From Candidatus Atelocyanobacterium thalassae (GTDB lineage: Bacteria > Cyanobacteriota > Cyanobacteriia > Cyanobacteriales > Microcystaceae), in the NCBI GenBank assembly GCA_051971635.1, contig JBFPLN010000003.1:384001-448000 (forward strand): DNA of 64,000 bases. Reading direction: 5' to 3'. Below, piece after piece: positions 886 through 58,631 of the stretch. How positions within the stretch are numbered: the stretch's first letter is position 1; every line of letters starts with the position of its first letter. The position numbers and the translations under genes were made by a program. The notes under the pieces were generated by a model. That model ran no database searches. It saw only the letters and a program-made list of their open reading frames with translations, and had not been told where the DNA came from.

Positions 886-2013
886 TTAATATAAATCGTA
901 TTTTAATAAGGTACAGTTTAAAGAACCATTATAAATTGGAGTACGATTAGATGCTCTTAAGCCAATTTGTTGAGTTAATTTTTTATCTTCACTTAAAATA
1001 TAAGCTACCCATCCTTTAAAGCGATGTTTGAGTACATCTCCTAATAGTTTGTATAATTTCCCTAATTCTTGAGAGTCTCCTATACGCCTACCATAAGGAG
1101 GATTACATATAATAATTCCTTTATCTGCTGGTGCTTCAATATCTTTTAAAGCTATTTGAATAAAATCAATATATTTTTCAATATTACATCTTTTTGCATT
1201 AATCCTTGCCTGCTCTATTACTGATAAATTATGATCACTGCCAAAAATAGGTGCTTTAAGTTTTTTTCTCTGTTTTTTGACTGCCTCATTAATTATATTT
1301 TTATAAAGTTTTTCATCAAAATCTGGCCAAAATTGAAATCCAAAAGATTTTCTATTTAATCCCACAGCCATATTTAAACTTTTCAAGGTTGCTTCAATAG
1401 GTATAGTTCCTGATCCACACATAGGATCTAATAAACAAATATCAGGTGTCCATTCTGCTATATCCAATAGTGCTGCAGCCAAACTTTCTTTAATAGGTGC
1501 GAGTCCCATAGCTGCACGATATCCTCTTCTATGTAAACTATTTCCAGAGCTATCTAAACTTAGGATGCATGAATTGTCGTTAATATGCGCATTTATTAAA
1601 ATCTCAGGATTTTTAGTATCAATAGTAGATCTTTTATTAAAACGATCTCTTTGCTGGTCAATAATAGAATTTTTAATTTGTAGAGCAGTAAAGTGAGTAT
1701 GATTTAACTTTAAGTTTTTCCCTGTACAATTTACTGCAAATGTCTGTTCTGTCTTTAAATATTGAGACCAATCTATTTTGCCAACATTATCATATAGTTC
1801 TAGCCCATCATTACATCTAATTGTAAAAATAGGCATTAGAAAACGAAGAATAGTTCTTGACCATATGTTTACTCTATATAACAAGGATTTATCACCTTGA
1901 AAATATACTCCTGCAAATGTAATTTCAATACTCTTAGCGTTTAAATTTTTTAATTCCTGAGCAGCCACTTTTTCCAATCCTCTAGCGACAGTGGCGAAGT
2001 ATTGATTAGGCAT
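886..2013 (-). CDS. THUMP-domain class I SAM-dependent RNA methyltransferase (RlmL-like)
   Basis: LHRRGYR, APIKESLAAA, DPMCGSGT and NPPYG motifs. Confidence 0.9.
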   Translation of the reverse strand: MPNQYFATVARGLEKVAAQELKNLNAKSIEITFAGVYFQGDKSLLYRVNIWSRTILRFLMPIFTIRCNDGLELYDNVGKIDWSQYLKTEQTFAVNCTGKNLKLNHTHFTALQIKNSIIDQQRDRFNKRSTIDTKNPEILINAHINDNSCILSLDSSGNSLHRRGYRAAMGLAPIKESLAAALLDIAEWTPDICLLDPMCGSGTIPIEATLKSLNMAVGLNRKSFGFQFWPDFDEKLYKNIINEAVKKQRKKLKAPIFGSDHNLSVIEQARINAKRCNIEKYIDFIQIALKDIEAPADKGIIICNPPYGRRIGDSQELGKLYKLLGDVLKHRFKGWVAYILSEDKKLTQQIGLRASNRTPIYNGSLNCTLLKYDLY

Positions 2014-2409
2014 TAATTTAGTGATTTTGTAGAATAGTTCTTATAGACTGTCATAACTCACCTAATATTTTTATTGTTAAAAATTAGTCTATCGCAAATA
2101 TTAGAGTGCGATTATATTACCTATAGTAGTTGGATGATAATACTGTAAAACTAATCTATTCTTATGAATTACGTCAATAAATAATAAACTTGTTGATAAA
2201 ACCAATTTCTAGGAGAAACATTACTGTTAAAAATTGCTTTATAGATAAGATATTTGAAATTTTCATAACTATGATTGATACAAATCTATTATAACAAATT
2301 CTTGAAATCAACACTTGGGAATAAACCCTAAAGCCAATAATCATTACAAGAATAAAAAGCTTTTATGATCTTTTATTATTTAATAATGTATTGAATTGAC
2401 TATTAAACT

Positions 2410-3830
2410 ATGTCTAAAAACTATTGAATAAATAATGACGGGCAACAATCATTAAATTCTATAAGTTATTTATTTCCAGATTAGTCAAATTCAAGCTGTG
2501 GAGACAAACATTTGAAAAGCAAATTTTTTCAAGGTCTATTAGGAAGGCGAAAAAAAGCTGCTTTTGTATTAATTATTGTTTGGGGTATCATTATCAGCTT
2601 ATATTTTGTACCTTGGGGAATCTGGATTGTTTATATAATAACCACTCTTTTGAGTTTTCGATCACTTCTTATTATCATAACTCAACCAACTAGAATATCC
2701 ACGTCTTTACCTTACGAGGATTTAAAGCAAATTCCTTCAGTCTCTTTACTAGTAGCAATAAAGAACGAAGAAACCGTTATTCGTCAATTAGTAACAGAAT
2801 TATGTGGTTTAGATTATGTGCTTGGAAAATACGATCTCTGGATTGTAAATGATCATAGTACTGATAAAACAGTTAGTATACTAAACGACTTGGCTCAAGA
2901 ATATCCTCAACTTAATATCCTTCTCTTGTAGCAAGAGGTGGTAAATCTGGGGCTCTAAAGAGTGTTCTTCAAAAAGCTAGAGAAGATGTAATTGTAGCTT
3001 TTAATGCAAATGCTAGGGTTTCTAAAGACTTATTAAAACATGTAATTCCATTATTTGCTCAAGAAGAAATAGGTGCAGTACAAGTACGCAAGAAAGTTGT
3101 CAATGAGACCTTAAATTTATGGACTCGGGAATAAGCAGCAGAGATGGCGTTAGATAGTTTTTTTCAAGAGCAACGTATTTCAGTTAATGGGATTGGAGGA
3201 TTACGAGATAATGGCCAGCTTGTTCGTCGTATCGCTTTAGCTAAACGTGGAGGATAGAGCGAACAAACTATTACCGATGATTTGGATTTGACTATTCGTT
3301 TGCATTTAGATGGTTAGAAAATTAAGTTTTTAAATAATCATGCTGTTGAAGAAGAAGGTGTTGTAAGCGCAAAAGCTTTGTGGCATAAGCGTAATCACTG
3401 GGCAGAGGGAGGTTACTAACGTTATTTAGATTATTGGAAGTTTATCCTATATCAACCTATGGGATGGAGTAAAAAGTTTGACTTAATTTTATTTACATTA
3501 GTGCAGTATCTTTTACCGAGTGCTATTACTCCTGATTTTATAATGATGATTGTTCATCACCGTTTATCCTTATTAAGTCTTTTGATAGGGCTAATGCTAT
3601 CTTTATCTTGCTGGGGAATGTTTGTAGGCTTACGTCGAATTTATGGTAAAACAGTTTGGACAACTTTTAGTGTATTACGCTTAATCATAAAAACTTTATG
3701 GGGGGTATTATATATGATGCATTGGTTAATTGTTATGCCTTGTGTTAGAGGGAGAATGTCAATTAGAGCTAAACGTTTAAAGTAGATTAAAACTATACAT
3801 CAAGGGACTATCGTAACAATTGATGAATAA
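2410..3830 (+). pseudogene. mgdA: Inactivated monoglucosyldiacylglycerol synthase (GT2, Sll1377/MgdA type)
   Basis: Reconstructed reading: FFQGLLGRRKKAA...KNEETVI...GGKSGAL...GAVQVRK...EMALD...EQTITDDLDLTIRLHL...EEEGV...WAEGGY*RYLDYW...RMSIRAKRLK*IKTIH. Stops at 2425, 2482, 3132, 3255, 3315, 3417 and 3783; frameshift near 2925-2931. ORF-track pieces 2512..2931 and 3459..3785 are fragments of it. Confidence 0.9.
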
Positions 3831-4225
3831 CTGAAGTAATTGCTATAGATATAATCTATATAGATAGTTTATTAGGCTACTAGAATTAAATTCATATAGA
3901 CTATATCAACCAAGTACACATGTAAGAGAAAGTAAAATCAATATTTATGAAGTAAGGTGTTAAATATGACACGAAAATAAGAGTTGTATTATTGGTCATT
4001 ATTCATAAAAATTTCTTAGATGTAATACTTAAAATATTTAATTCCTAATTGATAAAATATAAGAAAAGTAGATCATTATTTATTATTTTTCCTGGATTGT
4101 ATAGAATATTAAGTGTTACTAAAAAAATGGAGATGATTTTTATTCTAAAACAGTTCTCTACTGTAAAAGTAACTTGAAAGTTTAAATTTAGTATTCTTTT
4201 AACTTTATTGAATATATAACTATAT

Positions 4226-5368
4226 ATGAAATACGCCTTAGTTCATGAATGGCTAACTCCAAAAGCTACAGGAGGTTCTGAATTAGTAGTCAAAGAAATT
4301 CTTAAGCATATAAAAGCTGATGTTTATTCTCTTATTGACTTTGAATCTACTAATCCTAAAAGTTATCTTTATAACCGCTCTATTGGAACCACTTTCTTAC
4401 AATATTTCCCTTTAGCCTATAACGGCGTTCAAAAGTATTTACCTTTTTTGCCTTTAGCTATAGAGCAATTGGATTTAAGAGAATACGATGTAATACTATC
4501 TTCTTCTCACTCTGTAGCTAAAGGAATACTTGCCAGTCCACATCAGCTTCATGTATGTTACTGTCATACACCAATGCGCTATGCCTGGGATTTAACTTTT
4601 GACTATCTCAAAAATTCTATAATAGGTAGAGGAATTCCTGGAATATTTACTCGTTATTTATTACATCATTTAAGACAGTGGGATGTTATCTCTGCTAATC
4701 GTGTTGATTTTTTTATAGCTAATTCTCACCATACTGCTGATCGTATATGGCGTTGCTATCGTCGTAAGGCCAAGGTTATATATCCTCCAGTAGATATAGA
4801 TAGATTTACTTATACTGCTAAAAAAGATAATTTTTATGTTACTGTTTCTAGGCTAGTTAGTTATAAAAAAATTAACTTAATTGTACAGGCCTTCAATAAG
4901 CTAGGATATCCTTTAATCGTTATCGGTGACGGACCAGAAATTTCTAAAATTCGTTCGATTGCTCAGCCAAATATAAAAATTCTAGGAGCGCAAAAAGATT
5001 CAGTAGTAGAAAACTATGTTGCAAAAGCAAAAGCTTTTATATATGCTGCTTGTGAAGATTTTGGAATAGCTTTAGTAGAAGCTCAAGCTTGTGGTACTCC
5101 AGTTATTGCTTATGGGAATGGTGGTGCATTAGAGACTGTAATTGATGTTCAAAAAAATGTACAAGATGGAACTGGAATTTTATTTAAAGATCAAACTGTT
5201 CAGTCTCTTGTTGAAGCAGTTGAAACTTTTCATGATTTTCAACATCAAGTAAATCCTGAAAGTTGTCGCCGTCAAGCGGAGAAATTTTCTCCTAAAATCT
5301 TTGAAACATCTTACTTAGCTTTTTTAGAAAAATGCTATGAAGACTTTACTGCAAATTCCTCGTCATAA
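4226..5368 (+). CDS. Glycosyltransferase family 4
   Basis: ALVHEWL..GGSE, CYCHTPMRYAWD, EDFGIALVEAQACGTPVIA. Confidence 0.9.
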   Translation: MKYALVHEWLTPKATGGSELVVKEILKHIKADVYSLIDFESTNPKSYLYNRSIGTTFLQYFPLAYNGVQKYLPFLPLAIEQLDLREYDVILSSSHSVAKGILASPHQLHVCYCHTPMRYAWDLTFDYLKNSIIGRGIPGIFTRYLLHHLRQWDVISANRVDFFIANSHHTADRIWRCYRRKAKVIYPPVDIDRFTYTAKKDNFYVTVSRLVSYKKINLIVQAFNKLGYPLIVIGDGPEISKIRSIAQPNIKILGAQKDSVVENYVAKAKAFIYAACEDFGIALVEAQACGTPVIAYGNGGALETVIDVQKNVQDGTGILFKDQTVQSLVEAVETFHDFQHQVNPESCRRQAEKFSPKIFETSYLAFLEKCYEDFTANSSS

Positions 5369-5444: not shown

Positions 5445-6179
5445 ATGACTATTAATAACCAATTTACTTCTATTAAAACGTTACAAATTCTAATAAGAAA
5501 AAAATCAATTACCTCAATTGTTCAAAAACTTCATCATAGATCTCGAACACAATATATATTGAGTAATCAATTTATTAAAAGATCTTTTGATATATTATTT
5601 TCTTTTTCTGTATTGATTATTTTTTTACCTCTTTACTTGCTGTTAAGTTTTTTAATAGCAGTTAGTTCTCCTGGGCCTGTTTTTTATTTTCAAGAAAGGG
5701 CTGGAAAAAATTTTAAAAAGTTTAAATGTATTAAATTTAGAACGATGGTTCAAAATGCAGATGAAGTATTAGAATCAATAATGGCAAGTTCTCCACAGAT
5801 TAAAGCTGAATTTGAAAATAATTTTAAGCTAAGAGAGGATCCTCGGGTTACCTGGATCGGGAAGTTCCTCCGTTTAACTAGTTTAGATGAATTTCCTCAA
5901 TTTTGGAACGTCTTAAAAGGAGATATGAGTGTTGTTGGTCCCAGACCATTGGTCACTGATGAGCTTTGTAAATACGGAGATAAGATAGGGAAAGTCTTAA
6001 CTATTCGGCCAGGAATAACTGGTTTGTGGCAAGTTTCAGGTCGTAATGATATTCCCTACCCTCAAAGAGTGCAAATTGATATTTATTATGTAAATTATCA
6101 TACCTGGATTATGGATGTATGGATAATTTTTAAAACTATTGGAGTAATTATTTTCCCAAAAAATAATGGTGCTTACTAA
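5445..6179 (+). CDS. Bacterial sugar transferase (polyprenyl-phosphate phosphoglycosyl transferase, WcaJ/WbaP C-terminal domain type)
   Basis: KRSFDI, KFRTM, DPRVT..GKFLRLTSLDEFPQFWNVLKGDMSVVGPRP, RPGITGLWQVSGR; AGGAG RBS upstream. Confidence 0.92.
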   Translation: MTINNQFTSIKTLQILIRKKSITSIVQKLHHRSRTQYILSNQFIKRSFDILFSFSVLIIFLPLYLLLSFLIAVSSPGPVFYFQERAGKNFKKFKCIKFRTMVQNADEVLESIMASSPQIKAEFENNFKLREDPRVTWIGKFLRLTSLDEFPQFWNVLKGDMSVVGPRPLVTDELCKYGDKIGKVLTIRPGITGLWQVSGRNDIPYPQRVQIDIYYVNYHTWIMDVWIIFKTIGVIIFPKNNGAY

Positions 6180-6360
6180 GCCAAATATCCATATACCATA
6201 TAGACCTAATATAATGTAATTATTATAGATAATAAGAATTTATTTAGTTTAATCCAAACGAAAAATACTATATTTTTTTGATTTCATAGTTCATTTTATT
6301 TACTGCGGATAAAAAAATTAACTATGAAATCAATGTGCTTCTGAATTTCATTACGCGATA

Positions 6361-6579
6361 TTACAAGCTAAGCCAGTGTACCTCTTCAAGATGTACACCC
6401 TTAATTATTAGTATAGATGTACTTGTAAAAATTGCTAACAAATTAGCACAGATTAAATATCCAGCAACTAATAATACAGAACTTATTGGTAGAAATGTTT
6501 GCAGAATAATTGACATTAAGGCACCATAATCACAGGAAATCCCACAATAAGTAAACACACTATTAAAGAAAAACTCCAT
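6361..6579 (-). CDS. Small hydrophobic hypothetical protein (72 aa)
   Basis: ATG preceded by AGGAG (attaggagctttttaatATG); long hydrophobic stretch; family not recognised. Confidence 0.45.
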   Translation of the reverse strand: MEFFFNSVFTYCGISCDYGALMSIILQTFLPISSVLLVAGYLICANLLAIFTSTSILIIKGVHLEEVHWLSL

Positions 6580-7318
6580 ATTAAAAAGCTCCTAATCATT
6601 AGGAAAGTGTTAAAAAATTTTAAATTTATTTTTTGTACAAGGTTCATATATTATTTCTCCATAGAAAACATAAGCTTAAAAAATACTTATCTAAATCAAT
6701 ATAGGTATCATAATAAATTGATAGTATTTTTCGACACAAAGATTAACATATAAAACTAGCTTTTGTTTCTTGCATATAGTTTCGCCTAAAAGGCAATATA
6801 TTAAACTTTTATTATTGAATTAACTAATCTAATAATAAAAGTTTAATATATTGCCTTTTTTATACTACTTAGTAGTTTCTATTAATATTATTTAAAATAT
6901 ATTTTTAAGCTTATTAAATGTTTTGATTTAAATACTTTGAATATTTAACTAGTTTTTAATCTGATAGTATAAAATGCCAGCAATATTATGTTAAAAAATA
7001 TAGATATTGATATCCTAGACAATAGCGACTCTAATGTTGCATATTGGGATGTCTGATTCGAAACCATAATATAATTTACAAATACCAGAAAAACAAATCT
7101 AATTTTTTATTAATATCTTTTTTATTAGATTATTTTATCGCTTTAAGTCTAGATATAATGACCTTGTTGCTTTAAAGTAAAAAAGGTTATCATTTTTAAT
7201 AATGTAATTCTAAAAATAAAAGTTCAAGAAAAATTAAACCTACACAATATAGTTTTAATCTTTTTTCGAAACTGATATTAAACATATAAAAATAGTCTTT
7301 TCTAGATAAAACTGTCTT

Positions 7319-8401
7319 ATGAATGATGATTATTTATTGTCAAGTTATGACTATCACTTACCTTCAAAACTAATTGCTCAGAATCCTCTAGTCCCAAGAG
7401 ATTCTTCACGTTTATTAGTAGTCAATTCTTCAAATACTCATGTTCATAGTTTTTTTAATGAATTACCTAAATGGTTGCTACCTGGAGATCTGCTCGTATT
7501 TAATAATACACGTGTTGTTCCGGCAAGACTTTATGGACAAAAGACTACTGGAGCTAAAGTTGAAGTATTACTATTAGAAGAAAAAAAGCCTTTCACCTGG
7601 CTTGTATTAGTTAAACCAGGTAAAAGATGTAAGATTGGCAGTGAAATTTTATTTAAAAGAGGATTAAAGGAATTTGAACAAAATGATCTACTTAAAGCAA
7701 CAGTAATAGATCAGGATGAACAAACGGGAGGAAGAATATTAAAGTTTGACGTAAGTTCTAAGAGTGCATTCTGGGAAAATTTAGAAAAAATTGGACATCT
7801 TCCTCTACCGCCATACATTACTAAATGTAGTGCAAACCCATCTCAGTATCAAACGATTTATGCGCAAAAGCCAGGTGCAATTGCTGCTCCAACAGCAGGT
7901 TTACATTTCACTCAAGAGTTGCTAAAAAATTTGCAAGAAAGAGGAATTGATCAAGCTTATGTCACTTTACATGTAGGATTGGGAACATTCCGTCCAGTGA
8001 ACACAGATGATATAAAAAAACATACGATGCATCAAGAATGGGTGGAAGTATCAAATCAAACGATCCAAAAAATTCATGAAACTAAAAGGAAAGGAGGACG
8101 AGTTATAGCAGTTGGAACAACTGTAGTAAGAGCTTTGGAAGGAATGGCAGATGTGGTTTCAATGGATAAAAAATGTGATGTAGAGTCTTTTTCGGGTAAA
8201 ACTGATATCTTTATATATCCAGGATATAGTTGGCGATTGATTGATGGAATGATCACGAACTTTCATCTTCCTAAATCTAGTTTATTAATGCTTGTTAGTG
8301 CTCTGATAGGTAGAAAAAGACTATTAGAATTGTATAAAATAGCTATTGAGCAAAAGTACCGTTTTTATTCTTTTGGAGATGGAATGCTGGTTCTATTCTA
8401 A
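7319..8401 (+). CDS. queA: S-adenosylmethionine:tRNA ribosyltransferase-isomerase
   Basis: YDYHLP..LIAQ.P, PLPPYI, AAPTAGLHFT, TLHVGLGTFRPV, TNFHLPKSSL, YRFYSFGD. Confidence 0.97.
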   Translation: MNDDYLLSSYDYHLPSKLIAQNPLVPRDSSRLLVVNSSNTHVHSFFNELPKWLLPGDLLVFNNTRVVPARLYGQKTTGAKVEVLLLEEKKPFTWLVLVKPGKRCKIGSEILFKRGLKEFEQNDLLKATVIDQDEQTGGRILKFDVSSKSAFWENLEKIGHLPLPPYITKCSANPSQYQTIYAQKPGAIAAPTAGLHFTQELLKNLQERGIDQAYVTLHVGLGTFRPVNTDDIKKHTMHQEWVEVSNQTIQKIHETKRKGGRVIAVGTTVVRALEGMADVVSMDKKCDVESFSGKTDIFIYPGYSWRLIDGMITNFHLPKSSLLMLVSALIGRKRLLELYKIAIEQKYRFYSFGDGMLVLF

Positions 8402-21786: not shown

Positions 21787-22944
21787 TTAAGAGCATTTGG
21801 TCATTTTTCCATGTTTGGTTAATTTATACTTACTATTACGCCATATAACAGTTCTTTGCGTAAAAGCTAATCCCCAAAAAATCAAGCCAAACATATCCCT
21901 CAAAGGTAATAAATATAAATTTTTAATACTTTCATTATCTCTTATTTCTCGAGCTACTATAAAAGCAGTAAATATCCTAATAAATATTGTTATAATCAAT
22001 ACCCATAAGCTAATTATACTTCCTTCGAGCATACAGAATATAATAGCAAATGGAATTGCTCGAATAAAAATAGTTGAAATAAATGCTCCAGGTCTCGCTA
22101 AATAAGTATTCTGATCCCAATATACTTGATGATCCCACCAATTTTTCCAACTTTTCAAGTCTACAACAACATCTATGACGTAAGGCAAAAGTATCATACT
22201 TTTGCCAGAAGTCCATACTCTCCTTCCAATCTCATAGTCTTCGACCAGATAATTAGCTAAACTTTTTAATCCTCCAAATGAATCCAAAGTCGATTTATGA
22301 ATTGCAATAGATGGACCTAAACATGAATTTGAAGCCCCTGTCACATATGCAAAAATAACACTTGGTATAAAATCTGAATTAATCGTTAACATTTCTAGTC
22401 TCTCACATAAGCTATTAGCTTTTATGAGTTTAAAAGGGGTACAAACACAGCCAACTTCTTTTTTAGTGAGAGGTGTAACAATATTAGAAATGTAATCACT
22501 TTGCAAATAAGTATCACTATCACTTATTATGAAGAGTTCATGTTTTGCTTCATCAATTGCTCCTAACAAATTATTAACTTTCCCATTAGCTCCTTCTTCA
22601 ACCGTACTAATAACAACAGAGACAAAGTCTCTACCTAATTCAGATTGAATTTTTTTTAAGATAGGATATGCAGGGTCATCCGATGCTTGAACAGAATAAA
22701 TTATTTGGTAATTAGGATATTTTTGTTTAGTAATACTTCTTAGATTGCTTTCCAGATTTTTCTCTAAACCTCTAACAGGCTTTAAAACTGATACTGGTGG
22801 AGTAAAATCTTTATTTATGAAAGTATTTGTACGAGAAGATTTTAAAAAATATTTAGTTGTGAAAACAGTAATAATTGAAAAAACTGATCCACATATGATG
22901 GGTATTAAACAGAGTAATGATAGTGTGCTGTAAATATCTATCAT
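21787..22944 (-). CDS. hpnI: HpnI-like / ceramide-glucosyltransferase-family GT2 (probable hopanoid glycosyltransferase)
   Basis: SVLKPVRGLE, NGKVNNL, ISDSD, YLVEDYEIG, HQVYW, C-terminal VIWR...KL; start placed at MIDIY (22944). Confidence 0.7.
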   Translation of the reverse strand: MIDIYSTLSLLCLIPIICGSVFSIITVFTTKYFLKSSRTNTFINKDFTPPVSVLKPVRGLEKNLESNLRSITKQKYPNYQIIYSVQASDDPAYPILKKIQSELGRDFVSVVISTVEEGANGKVNNLLGAIDEAKHELFIISDSDTYLQSDYISNIVTPLTKKEVGCVCTPFKLIKANSLCERLEMLTINSDFIPSVIFAYVTGASNSCLGPSIAIHKSTLDSFGGLKSLANYLVEDYEIGRRVWTSGKSMILLPYVIDVVVDLKSWKNWWDHQVYWDQNTYLARPGAFISTIFIRAIPFAIIFCMLEGSIISLWVLIITIFIRIFTAFIVAREIRDNESIKNLYLLPLRDMFGLIFWGLAFTQRTVIWRNSKYKLTKHGKMTKCS

Positions 22945-23171
22945 GAATTTATGTGTTTTATTGTGCGATAAGATTAACGTATGTATCGATAAACTAAAAA
23001 TAGTTTTATATACCAAACAAAGTCCGTTAATAAATTTCTTTGTGTTGAAGCTTGCTTTGAAATTAGTAAATAAGTTACTTCAGTAACGTACTTAATCTTT
23101 TTTAAATAGGGAAATTATTTTGGGCGATTACAGTAATTAATTTACTTATGTCGTGCCTTTAGATTATTTTC

Positions 23172-23764: not shown

Positions 23765-24540
23765 AGGCGTTTTTTAATGTTTCTCTATATGATATAAATG
23801 AACTATAATCAATTTAAGTCTAGGCTTTGTGAATAAACCTTTTTACCATTGTAATAATTTTCTGCCAAGTTATGTCTACTTTGGCTGTGTATCCAGTGTA
23901 AATTTTAGATTACTTATTTCTATAGTAATTTTACTTTAAAGCTAAGCATTGAGTAGTGACTTTTGCAAAAACCTAAAGTATAAATACTTGACATAAGACA
24001 GCTATACATTGGTCAACAATTTTAGGAAAAATAAAGTCATAATACTTCAAATAGTGATTTGAATTTAATGAACAAAAGTTAAACCTCCAATAGTATCATT
24101 ATGTAATTTTGTCTTGAAATTAATCTCTTAAATACAATACCTCATTTCTGGCTAGAATAATTAATTTTATGTTTGATATTTTCTAAATTCGATGAAGTGA
24201 AGGAAATTAATACTATTTATAAAAATAAACTCTAATTTAAAATTACTCAGCTGATAATTATTTTTAACATGGTTTCTTTGTAGTCACTGCCTCTGTATTT
24301 AACTTATCCCAAGTGAATTTTTATAAACAAAATAATTGTTGTAATTCCTAAAATATTCTGGCTGAACAATAAAGTAAAAATATTATTATGTGCTATTTGT
24401 AGAATCTAATCATTAGATATACATATATTTTATTTGTTTAGAGAAGATTATTTAATTTTAGAAATTTATTGAAAAATAAAATTTCAGTGACAATAAACCG
24501 TTACTCTAGATTGAAGAGAAATCATAGGAGTAATATTTAG

Positions 24541-36905: not shown

Positions 36906-37756
36906 TACAAGCTTATGTAAATTTACTAAATGATAAAATATGGAACTAAATCTTATAAGATATACTGTGCATATCAATTAACACGTTAGCTAAAATTTTT
37001 CTTTATTAGATTATTAATAACTGAATAGTAGGTATTCGAGATATTAATCTTAAACAAGTTCTATTATTAAAGTCATTTTCCGGTATGGAGTAATAGTACT
37101 CCTTCTTAATAATGAGATGCTCATTTGTGAAGTATATTAAAAGTTTTACTTAATACAAAACAATTCATGGTACTGATGATTAAATTAATTAATATTACAG
37201 AGAAATCAAAGCTTTTATTGGAGTTGACTTTAGCAAAAATTTTATCCAATACTTTCATGTCTTCTTTATGACAATAATTATAAATAAATAATTTATAGTT
37301 ATTTTTTTATACTTGGTTTATAATCATTCTACATATCTTTAAAATTGGGAAAAATATTAGTTATTTATATGAACAACTAATATTTTATACTAATAATTTT
37401 ATCAATATATTTGAATTATTTATTATATTAACTATATAACATTTTGTTTAATACTGTATTAGTCTGCTTTCTTATTTAAAACTAGTGGAACAACTTTTTA
37501 AAGTCTTGCGTCCTGTCCAGTGCTGTTCATACTATGAATTGTAGTATGAACTTAATTTTCATTACCTCTGTAATGGTTGAATAATATGATACTTTAGAGA
37601 TAATTTTTATAGGGTTTGTACATAAAAATTTTCAATTAGAAATTAGTACTTTTTATAAATTAATTTAGAATTTGTCGCTGTTTAAAAGAGATTTTTTAAA
37701 AAGTTTTGAAATAGAGATTTGTTTGTTTAAAAGCACCAAATAGTGAGGAATAAATT

Positions 37757-57654: not shown

Positions 57655-58631
57655 TTACACTAAATAAATTATGACTAAGAAAAAACTAATAAATTGTATG
57701 CTTGAATTTTGTTACTTTTGTATCAACTTGAGAAGGATACATTTTCGTTATACCATACATGTGTTGTGATACATGGTATGTTTTTACTAAGAACTCTACA
57801 GAGAAAGTAGAAAAACAACATTTTTGTCAAATAGATTTCTAGAAAAAAATATAAATTCATAAATGAAAATCCTACGCTTAATCCATAGAATACTAAGGTG
57901 ATTATTAAGAAGATTTAATATCCTGTATAGTGTTTAAATATTATTTATTCAATGCGAAAAAAACACAACATGTAATTAATTATATAAATAACTACATAGT
58001 CTTAAGTAAAGATAATAAAAGCCTACCTTAAAAACTCTCTATATTTCTAGGCATAGTTTTTTATAAATTTGCACTTTATTAATACTTAAATTTTAAAACA
58101 AAGGAAAATTTTAAGTTGATTAAAGAAATGTAAAGTTAATTTACATTATCAAGTCTACATCATTTTACATCACTGGTTGTTTAAATATATTTTTATGGAA
58201 TTATTCCACAGGTAAACTATCATACCATCCTATTGTCTATTATTTAAGTATATTCAGAATATTTTTTATTATCTAGTTATCAATAATTCAATTATAGTTT
58301 TTAACTTAAAATATTACTATTATTGTAAATAAGATATATTAGCATTTCTTAACTAATAACCATTTAAGTATTAAAAAAAATATTTAATAAGTTATGATAC
58401 GATTTAACTTTTTCTTTTAAGTATAAATTTTTTATGTTTTATAAACTTCTCATTTTTTAGATTATCCAATAATGAATAATCTGAAAATTCATATAGCTAT
58501 TTTAAACTGATTAGAATCTTACTATTAATTATGATGGTTCTGACTGACAGAATATTGAAGATTCTATGGCTATTAGACTATTTAATCAAGATTAGTTGAA
58601 TTATTTGAGTAAACACAAAGTCATTAACTTT

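Follow-up and report, generated by a model that had tools for sequence, protein, structure and literature searches.

Does Candidatus Atelocyanobacterium thalassae still hold a working gene for the first step of cyanobacterial galactolipid synthesis and, if not, how might its membranes be supplied? The question is raised by a single gene-length relic of mgdA located at positions 2410-3830 (forward strand) of a stretch of 64,000 nucleotides (positions 384,001 to 448,000 of contig JBFPLN010000003.1, assembly GCA_051971635.1), which is referred to below as the window. Frame translations and a codon alignment place the ancestral ATG of this relic at 2410. Galactolipids account for most of the thylakoid membrane lipid, and MgdA is the GT2 membrane enzyme which makes beta-monoglucosyldiacylglycerol (MGlcDG), the first step of the cyanobacterial route leading from MGlcDG to monogalactosyldiacylglycerol (MGDG) and then to digalactosyldiacylglycerol (DGDG). 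The gene is regarded as essential in model cyanobacteria. The genome to which the window belongs (G000; 1,469,411 bp in six contigs, 99.74% complete, approximately 31% G+C) has Crocosphaera species as its closest named relatives, and was compared with two sister genomes of the same genus, G001 and G002, each represented by one contig (1,443,806 and 1,491,611 bp, respectively), as well as with relatives outside the genus. The nearest intact ortholog of the relic, a protein of 474 aa from the relative G018, served as the reference for all residue and codon numbers. The relic and its lesions are as follows.

2410..3830, + strand: mgdA pseudogene, full length, aligned to codons 1-474 of G018; matched by the MgdA profile at 190.7 + 452 bits despite the stops
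2425..2427, + strand: stop TGA at ancestral W6, specific to this lineage (TGG kept in G002)
2482..2484, + strand: stop TAG at ancestral W23, identical stop in the G002 remnant
2915..2931, + strand: frameshift site, with a 7-nt deletion against G018 at about 2922; here the G002 remnant shows a gap of 1 nt
3003..3011, + strand: DxD motif changed from FDADA to FNANA (D199N at 3003-3005, D201N at 3009-3011), each D being shared by at least 119 of 120 homologs
3132..3134, + strand: stop TAA at ancestral Q242, identical stop in G002
3255..3257, + strand: stop TAG at ancestral W283, the same codon being TGA in G002
3315..3317, + strand: stop TAG at ancestral W303 (TGG kept in G002)
3387..3401, + strand: QxxRW motif changed from QRNRW to KRNHW (Q327K at 3387-3389, R330H at 3396-3398), from the alignment to homologs
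3417..3419, + strand: stop TAA at ancestral Q337, from the codon alignment
3783..3785, + strand: stop TAG at ancestral W459, 16 codons before the ancestral end
2512..2931, + strand: surviving open reading frame (ORF) of 139 aa with a TTG start, spanning both N-terminal hydrophobic segments and the beginning of the GT-A domain (PF00535, E 9.5e-8)
3459..3785, + strand: surviving ORF of 108 aa over the C-terminal membrane segments, closing at the TAG at 3783-3785

Each of the seven in-frame stops falls on a codon that encodes W or Q in G018, and after the 7-nt deletion the old frame closes at the TAG at 2929-2931. The damage extends to the catalytic residues: D199N, D201N, Q327K and R330H all hit positions counted as invariant (the same residue in at least 119 of 120 intact homologs), and 22 of the 123 such positions covered by the relic (124 in the whole set) are altered. 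Within the 2.2 kb separating the flanking genes only the two ORFs listed above, both on the forward strand, are left of any size. When the stops are read as X, the second frame, starting at 2925, yields a GT2 sequence of 286 residues, and the catalytic GT-A domain of this glycosyltransferase family is recognised in the relic by PF00535, PF13641, PF13632 and PF13506, all above their cut-offs. Every detail given by the sequence-only reading of this locus, namely the seven in-frame stops, the frameshift near 2925-2931, FNANA and KRNHW, was reproduced by the frame translations and the codon alignment to G018.

The characterised counterpart is MgdA (Sll1377) of Synechocystis sp. PCC 6803, to which the relic is linked by orthology and with which it shares the layout of a GT-A domain preceded by two hydrophobic segments and followed by three. 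The same arrangement of two N-terminal and three C-terminal helices is described for Sll1377 in passages of PMC3916417, according to which truncated constructs are inactive. Unlike Sll1377, the sequence in the window is a pseudogene with seven stops, one frameshift and destroyed DxD and QxxRW motifs; of the features that mark the MgdA family, it has neither intact copies of these motifs nor an uninterrupted frame of about 470-480 aa with the five membrane helices, none of which Sll1377 can lose without losing its activity. Judged from its sequence, the relic descends from the MgdA family and is a non-working member of it.

That the family is MgdA and not another branch of GT2 is indicated by several lines of evidence. 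Exactly one strong match to the relic was found in 27 of the 28 relatives outside the genus (47-66% identity, uninterrupted frames of 455-546 aa), and a profile built from 20 MgdA sequences was matched end to end in the same 27. The C-terminal 286 residues of the relic are 66% identical to the nearest intact ortholog. Database kin of the G018 ortholog are named 'Beta-monoglucosyldiacylglycerol synthase' (UniRef) and '1,2-diacylglycerol 3-beta-glucosyltransferase' (JGI), and 'UDPglucose:diacylglycerol glucosyltransferase' is a further family name among the matches; of the solved structures, those of bacterial cellulose synthases come closest. Gene order points the same way, as can be seen from the two neighbours of the relic:

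886..2013, - strand: upstream neighbour, 375 aa; it borders the mgdA site in G000 and likewise in G001 and G002, whose copies are 87-89% identical
4226..5368, + strand: GT4 glycosyltransferase on the downstream side, 380 aa; its counterparts come after the intact mgdA in G018, the relic in G002 and the deletion site in G001

In four of the six relatives checked (G006, G013, G015 and G018), moreover, the intact mgdA stands back to back with, and divergent from, mgdE, the gene of the next enzyme. Names, synteny and single-copy orthology thus identify the relic as an ortholog of MgdA (Sll1377 family), and the family assignment made by the sequence-only reading is upheld on the same grounds. The only relative without a detectable mgdA, by the relic protein as well as by the 20-sequence profile, is G025, in which no MGD1-type domain was found either. 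Since this genome is a draft of 170 contigs (99% complete) and its congener G031 holds an intact mgdA with a frame of 473 aa, the missing gene is probably an assembly gap.

The lesions themselves recur in independent sequence data. Metagenome contig L134 (1851 bp) matches window positions 2211-3965 with 99.77% identity, four mismatches and no gaps, and no mismatch falls on a lesion. Contigs from four sequencing runs, which come from three further studies, have an identity of at least 99% over 2536-3865, a region spanning the frameshift site and five of the stops; 2422-2535 is left uncovered by these four runs, and none of the studies was flagged as a possible source of the present DNA. The frameshift site is crossed without gaps by the contigs of runs X4, X5 and X10 and by L134. 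As the same lesions are present in independently obtained contigs, they are not assembly errors, the objection to the stops that the sequence-only reading had itself named.

In a seawater run, a variant of the relic was observed which differs by A>G at 3130 (a return to the ancestral Gly codon) and by G>T at 3226, and in which a T inserted after 3396 makes a second frameshift. The existence of a variant with this further 1-nt insertion indicates that the relic is still decaying and is polymorphic in nature. Contigs of an oligo-dT RNA-seq library also match the relic exactly at 2839-3053 and 3384-3626; DNA carry-over may account for them, and transcription is not claimed.

An artefact or a misnaming, whether by sequencing errors, confusion with a different GT2 family, an intact copy elsewhere in the genome or readthrough of the stops, is accordingly very improbable. 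Such an explanation could draw on the draft state of G000, with its six contigs, and on the family models: NCBIfam, which holds no MgdA-specific model, gave only sub-threshold generic GT2 matches for the relic. The independent contigs repeat the lesions, however, and these comprise all three types of stop codon together with a frameshift and altered catalytic residues, while names and synteny tie the family to MgdA. The completeness of G000 and its otherwise empty profile searches, as well as two single-contig sister genomes that lack the gene, speak against an overlooked copy.

No second MgdA was found in G000: protein, tblastn and profile searches reached only the relic, followed by generic GT2 domains at no more than 53.6 bits. 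No intact mgdA was found in G001 either, in which the best profile match scored 52.5 bits, and G002 was found to contain only mgdA remnants (71-76 bits, with many stops) in the spacer between the same two flanking genes. The length of this spacer falls from 2212 bp in G000 to 1888 bp in G002 and to 560 bp in G001, where no trace of mgdA is left, so that the three genomes form a decay series from a full-length relic (G000) through scraps (G002) to a deletion (G001). The search for the plant-type enzyme, MGD1 (PF06925, MGDG_synth), was made in G000, where it gave no match at E <= 1; a control search with the same model was positive in 7 of 14 known genomes. A closer intact homolog, such as might come from another sublineage or from a transferred copy, was sought among 5.8 billion proteins of 157-503 aa, and none exceeded 66% identity. 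Scans of genomes and metagenomes for a closer mgdA yielded only Crocosphaera-type genes at no more than 65% identity, plus one contig of the same relic. An intact mgdA elsewhere, which would have refuted the sequence-only reading, was thus found in none of the three genomes, the searches having returned the relic in G000, remnants in G002 and no trace of the gene in G001. It follows that this genus of three genomes cannot make MGlcDG by means of MgdA.

The synonymous distances of five genes placed G000 closest to G002, with G001 outside, in all five cases. Between the relics of G000 and G002, the differences at the first, second and third codon positions amount to 0.260/0.149/0.283, compared with 0.068/0.018/0.171 in the flanking GT4 gene, and the NG86 dN/dS is 0.31 for the relic as against 0.10-0.17 for five functional genes of the same pair. 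Common to both relics are the stops at codons 23 (TAG) and 242 (TAA), an indel site and the replacement P135V; both also have a stop at codon 283, with different codons. For three shared stop positions among 124 one-step codons, the probability by chance is p = 0.007. We infer that mgdA has been under relaxed selection during most or all of the period after G000 and G002 split, its decay having begun at about that split or earlier. Parsimony favours a single loss before the three genomes of the genus diverged, with parallel loss as the alternative. Several points make the timing of the loss uncertain. The dN/dS of the relic is 0.31 and not 1; the shared stops all lie on easily mutated W/Q codons, and a weaker result is to be expected if W/Q codons alone are considered; and, by our own count, 6 of the 83 jointly aligned invariant positions are altered in both relics, where about four would be expected by chance. 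The three-genome decay series offers a dated example of pseudogene erosion in this lineage.

The next gene of the route has had a different fate. An mgdE gene (sll1376-type MGlcDG epimerase) is located outside the window, at G000:C3:153547-154830 on the reverse strand, 232 kb from the relic, and is intact in all three reduced genomes (L014 in G001, L015 in G002). Its product scores 697.7 bits against NF005653 (cut-off 336) and consists, in an intact frame, of an N-terminal membrane domain of the fatty-acid-hydroxylase type fused to a C-terminal Rossmann/SDR domain, the architecture that is described for mgdE (sll1376) in the review of Sato and Awai (PMC4742570). A cluster member of its Crocosphaera ortholog is named 'Sll1376 protein'. 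Two HxxHH boxes and a YxxxK motif are present in all three copies, and the Rossmann pattern, in the form in which it was searched, in those of G000 and G001 only. Within the genus, the dN/dS of mgdE is 0.14-0.16, which is indicative of purifying selection. We know of no substrate of MgdE other than MGlcDG, the product of the dead gene. The claim that this cell cannot make galactolipids by the cyanobacterial route therefore stands at the MgdA entry, where the gene is dead and neither a second copy nor, in G000, an MGD1-type gene was found; it does not extend to the epimerase, which is intact and constrained. The route is broken at its entry and probably also at the DGDG step, which is considered further below.

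The retention of MgdE is puzzling. Purifying selection on it in all three lineages is best accounted for if MGlcDG continues to be formed inside the symbiont. In the proposed scheme, mgdA decays under relaxed selection and the symbiont is unable to start galactolipid synthesis with an MgdA of its own; MGlcDG would be formed in it by a glucosyltransferase not encoded there as MgdA, most simply one that is encoded by the host and imported, in the manner reported for other pathway gaps of this symbiont (PMC11637426). An alternative within the same host-dependent scheme is that ready-made host galactolipids are transferred. Taken jointly, imported enzyme or transferred galactolipids, dependence on the host seems to us the likeliest way of coping, with chances slightly better than even. 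Its more specific form, a mosaic pathway in which an imported host-nuclear glucosyltransferase (a transferred mgdA or an unrelated enzyme) makes MGlcDG and the symbiont MgdE epimerises it to MGDG, is put forward tentatively, as a possibility short of an even chance. A plain switch to an MGD1-type route, on the other hand, would not explain why mgdE has been retained.

Dependence on the host meets with objections of its own. Neither a host enzyme nor a lipid transfer is in evidence from these symbiont data. MgdA is an integral membrane protein with five helices and would be harder to import than soluble enzymes. If, instead, the host supplied MGDG from its own MGD1-type enzyme, MgdE would be left without a substrate and a second function would then be needed for it.

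The symbiont has other glycosyltransferases. Besides the relic, G000 holds seven GT4-type loci and 11 further GT2-type matches. One of the former, L018 (359 aa, G000:C3:352394-353473), occurs also in both sister genomes and in 11 of the 12 other relatives searched, G006 being the one in which it was not found; its dN/dS is 0.09-0.17, and the match in G001 has one TAA and a frame seven residues shorter. The window itself contains a GT21/HpnI-like glycosyltransferase of 409 aa (21787-23016, reverse strand), which reaches 280.7 bits and thus remains below the HpnI cut-off of 310, and an HpnB-like GT2 is found at G000:C3:357916-359103. The GT21/HpnI-like protein probably glycosylates hopanoids, but formally it may be counted among the candidate lipid glycosyltransferases.

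From this repertoire a non-orthologous replacement may be construed, in which another glycosyltransferase encoded by the symbiont makes MGlcDG and MgdE converts it to MGDG without any host enzyme. The reduced genome offers candidates among its GT4-type loci and GT2-type matches, including L018 and the GT21/HpnI-like protein; GT21 enzymes of some proteobacteria make glycosyl-diacylglycerols; and the constraint on mgdE is compatible with any internal source of MGlcDG. Yet L018 and the sqdX-like GT4, of which there is a single one in every genome searched, also occur in relatives that still hold MgdA, and hopanoids are the evident substrates of the HpnB- and HpnI-like enzymes, a squalene-hopene cyclase gene (shc) being present. 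Known families of beta-glucosyl-diacylglycerol synthases other than MgdA were not found either (no match to PF06925 in G000). The tracing in relatives covered L018 and the sqdX-like protein, and the other glycosyltransferases may include a newcomer specific to the genus. On balance, we regard a resident replacement as unlikely.

The second glycosyltransferase of the route appears to be missing as well. A highly conserved GT4 family of 380-390 aa, the DgdA candidate, is present in each of the 28 non-genus relatives and missing from G000, G001 and G002. No remnant of it was found in G000 by tblastn at E < 10, and a search by synteny with the Crocosphaera neighbours gave no trace of one in a neighbourhood that has been rearranged. 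In nine relatives the GT4 gene lies directly upstream of, and on the same strand as, a TrkH/ktrB gene, and ktrB is slr1509. Slr1508 is identified as DgdA, and at the same time as the Ktr subunit KtrE, in passages of PMC3916417. On the basis of the TrkH neighbourhood, of this identity of Slr1508 and of the locus tag of ktrB, the family is probably DgdA and hence a candidate for the DGDG synthase. It weighs against a loss of the DGDG step that the assignment rests on the neighbourhood and a locus tag, the database names for the family all being generic: exact look-ups, two large homology searches and a protein atlas returned nothing beyond generic glycosyltransferase names for the sqdX-like and the DgdA-type GT4 families.

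Other membrane lipids seem to be provided for. The sqdB gene, used here as a marker of sulfolipid synthesis, is kept (match to plant SQD1 at E 9e-199), and in addition to shc a pgsA-type gene (CDP-alcohol phosphatidyltransferase) is present. As for the photosystems, PsaA and PsaB are intact in G000, in which no photosystem II (PSII) reaction-centre families were found. Together with the small genome and its kinship to Crocosphaera, these traits point to the UCYN-A lineage. The main task of DGDG in Synechocystis is to stabilise the oxygen-evolving complex of PSII (PMC5897459), and because this is its known specific role there, the loss of dgdA fits the loss of PSII.

These data bear on a further explanation, according to which the membranes are free of galactolipids: thylakoids containing photosystem I (PSI) only would be built on sulfolipid, phosphatidylglycerol, hopanoids and perhaps other host lipids, and the MgdE-type protein would be retained because it serves another reaction. 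Of the three galactolipid genes, mgdA and the dgdA candidate have been lost, the sulfolipid, phosphatidylglycerol and hopanoid genes are retained, and PSII, where DGDG has its greatest importance in Synechocystis (PMC5897459), is absent. The related diatom endosymbionts, however, keep mgdA and a dgdA-type gene, which means that genome reduction alone does not remove them. The lack of another known substrate for MgdE also counts against membranes of this kind. Cyanobacterial PSI crystal structures contain lipids, MGDG among them, and to our knowledge anionic lipids alone do not build thylakoids. Galactolipid-free membranes are therefore doubtful in our estimate, and dependence on the host is retained as the preferred explanation.

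How far does this situation depart from known systems? A review of 2016 states that 'all cyanobacteria have MgdA' (PMC4742570), and, by its gene content, the genus is an exception to this rule. At the origin of primary plastids, the MgdA-MgdE route was replaced by MGD1, an enzyme of family GT28, so that plastid lineages have lost both genes and use a nuclear MGD1 (PMC4742570). Like plastids, the symbiont is a compartment derived from a cyanobacterium that no longer encodes the cyanobacterial entry enzyme of galactolipid synthesis. Unlike plastids, it has kept MgdE under constraint, and no MGD1-type gene was found in its genome G000. The parallel that the sequence-only reading had drawn to the replacement of mgdA by MGD1 is thus borne out by the loss of the entry enzyme and fails at the epimerase, which plastid lineages have lost.

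The chromatophore of Paulinella and the diazoplasts of Epithemia and Rhopalodia are likewise reduced cyanobacterial genomes inside eukaryotes, and the diatom symbionts are close relatives of the present one. The chromatophore encodes mgdA, dgdA and sqdX (PMC4742570). By named database matches, the Epithemia symbiont has an MgdA of 477 aa and the Rhopalodia symbiont a DgdA-type GT4. Among the symbionts and organelles compared, the loss of both mgdA and the dgdA candidate is found only in this genus.

For UCYN-A, passages of PMC11637426 report that pathway gaps shared by all sublineages are filled by imported proteins encoded by the host. As in the other gaps of the nitroplast, a step is missing here from an otherwise retained pathway; in contrast to them, the missing enzyme is a polytopic membrane protein. 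The same paper, a pangenome study, lists 'a glycosyltransferase BscA' among the genes unique to one sublineage and makes no mention of lipids (PMC11637426). A full-text literature search, the scope of which did not extend to supplements or to the primary nitroplast proteome, found no report of a lipid or galactolipid gap in UCYN-A or the nitroplast. Nothing on a galactolipid gap was found in passages of the comparative-genomics papers PMC12234771 and PMC12903740 or of the protein-import review PMC12176269. The pseudogene in itself is ordinary for a shrinking genome, whereas a cyanobacterial lineage that lacks the entry enzyme of the galactolipid route and retains the epimerase seems not to have been reported before.

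A lineage that keeps PSI, MgdE and the genes for sulfolipid and phosphatidylglycerol without MgdA, and apparently without DgdA, represents a natural experiment on the lipid needs of membranes with PSI only. It also bears on the hand-over of membrane building from endosymbiont to host, a step in the origin of plastids which can no longer be observed there. Should the mosaic pathway be true, it would be a living intermediate of the transfer of membrane-lipid synthesis to the nucleus that plastids went through, and it would imply import of a membrane-lipid enzyme into an organelle about 100 million years old. Since the alga that hosts the symbiont can be cultured, the question is open to direct testing.

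Apart from the mgdA locus, the window contains further stretches without an ORF of at least 100 aa. Three of them, of 776-977 bp, are located at 57655-58631, 36978-37756 and 23765-24540. Another, of 1.1 kb, extends over 6180-7318, flanked on one side by a gene for a sugar transferase (5445-6179) and on the other by the gene at 7319-8401; it matches no Rfam family and could be another decayed gene.

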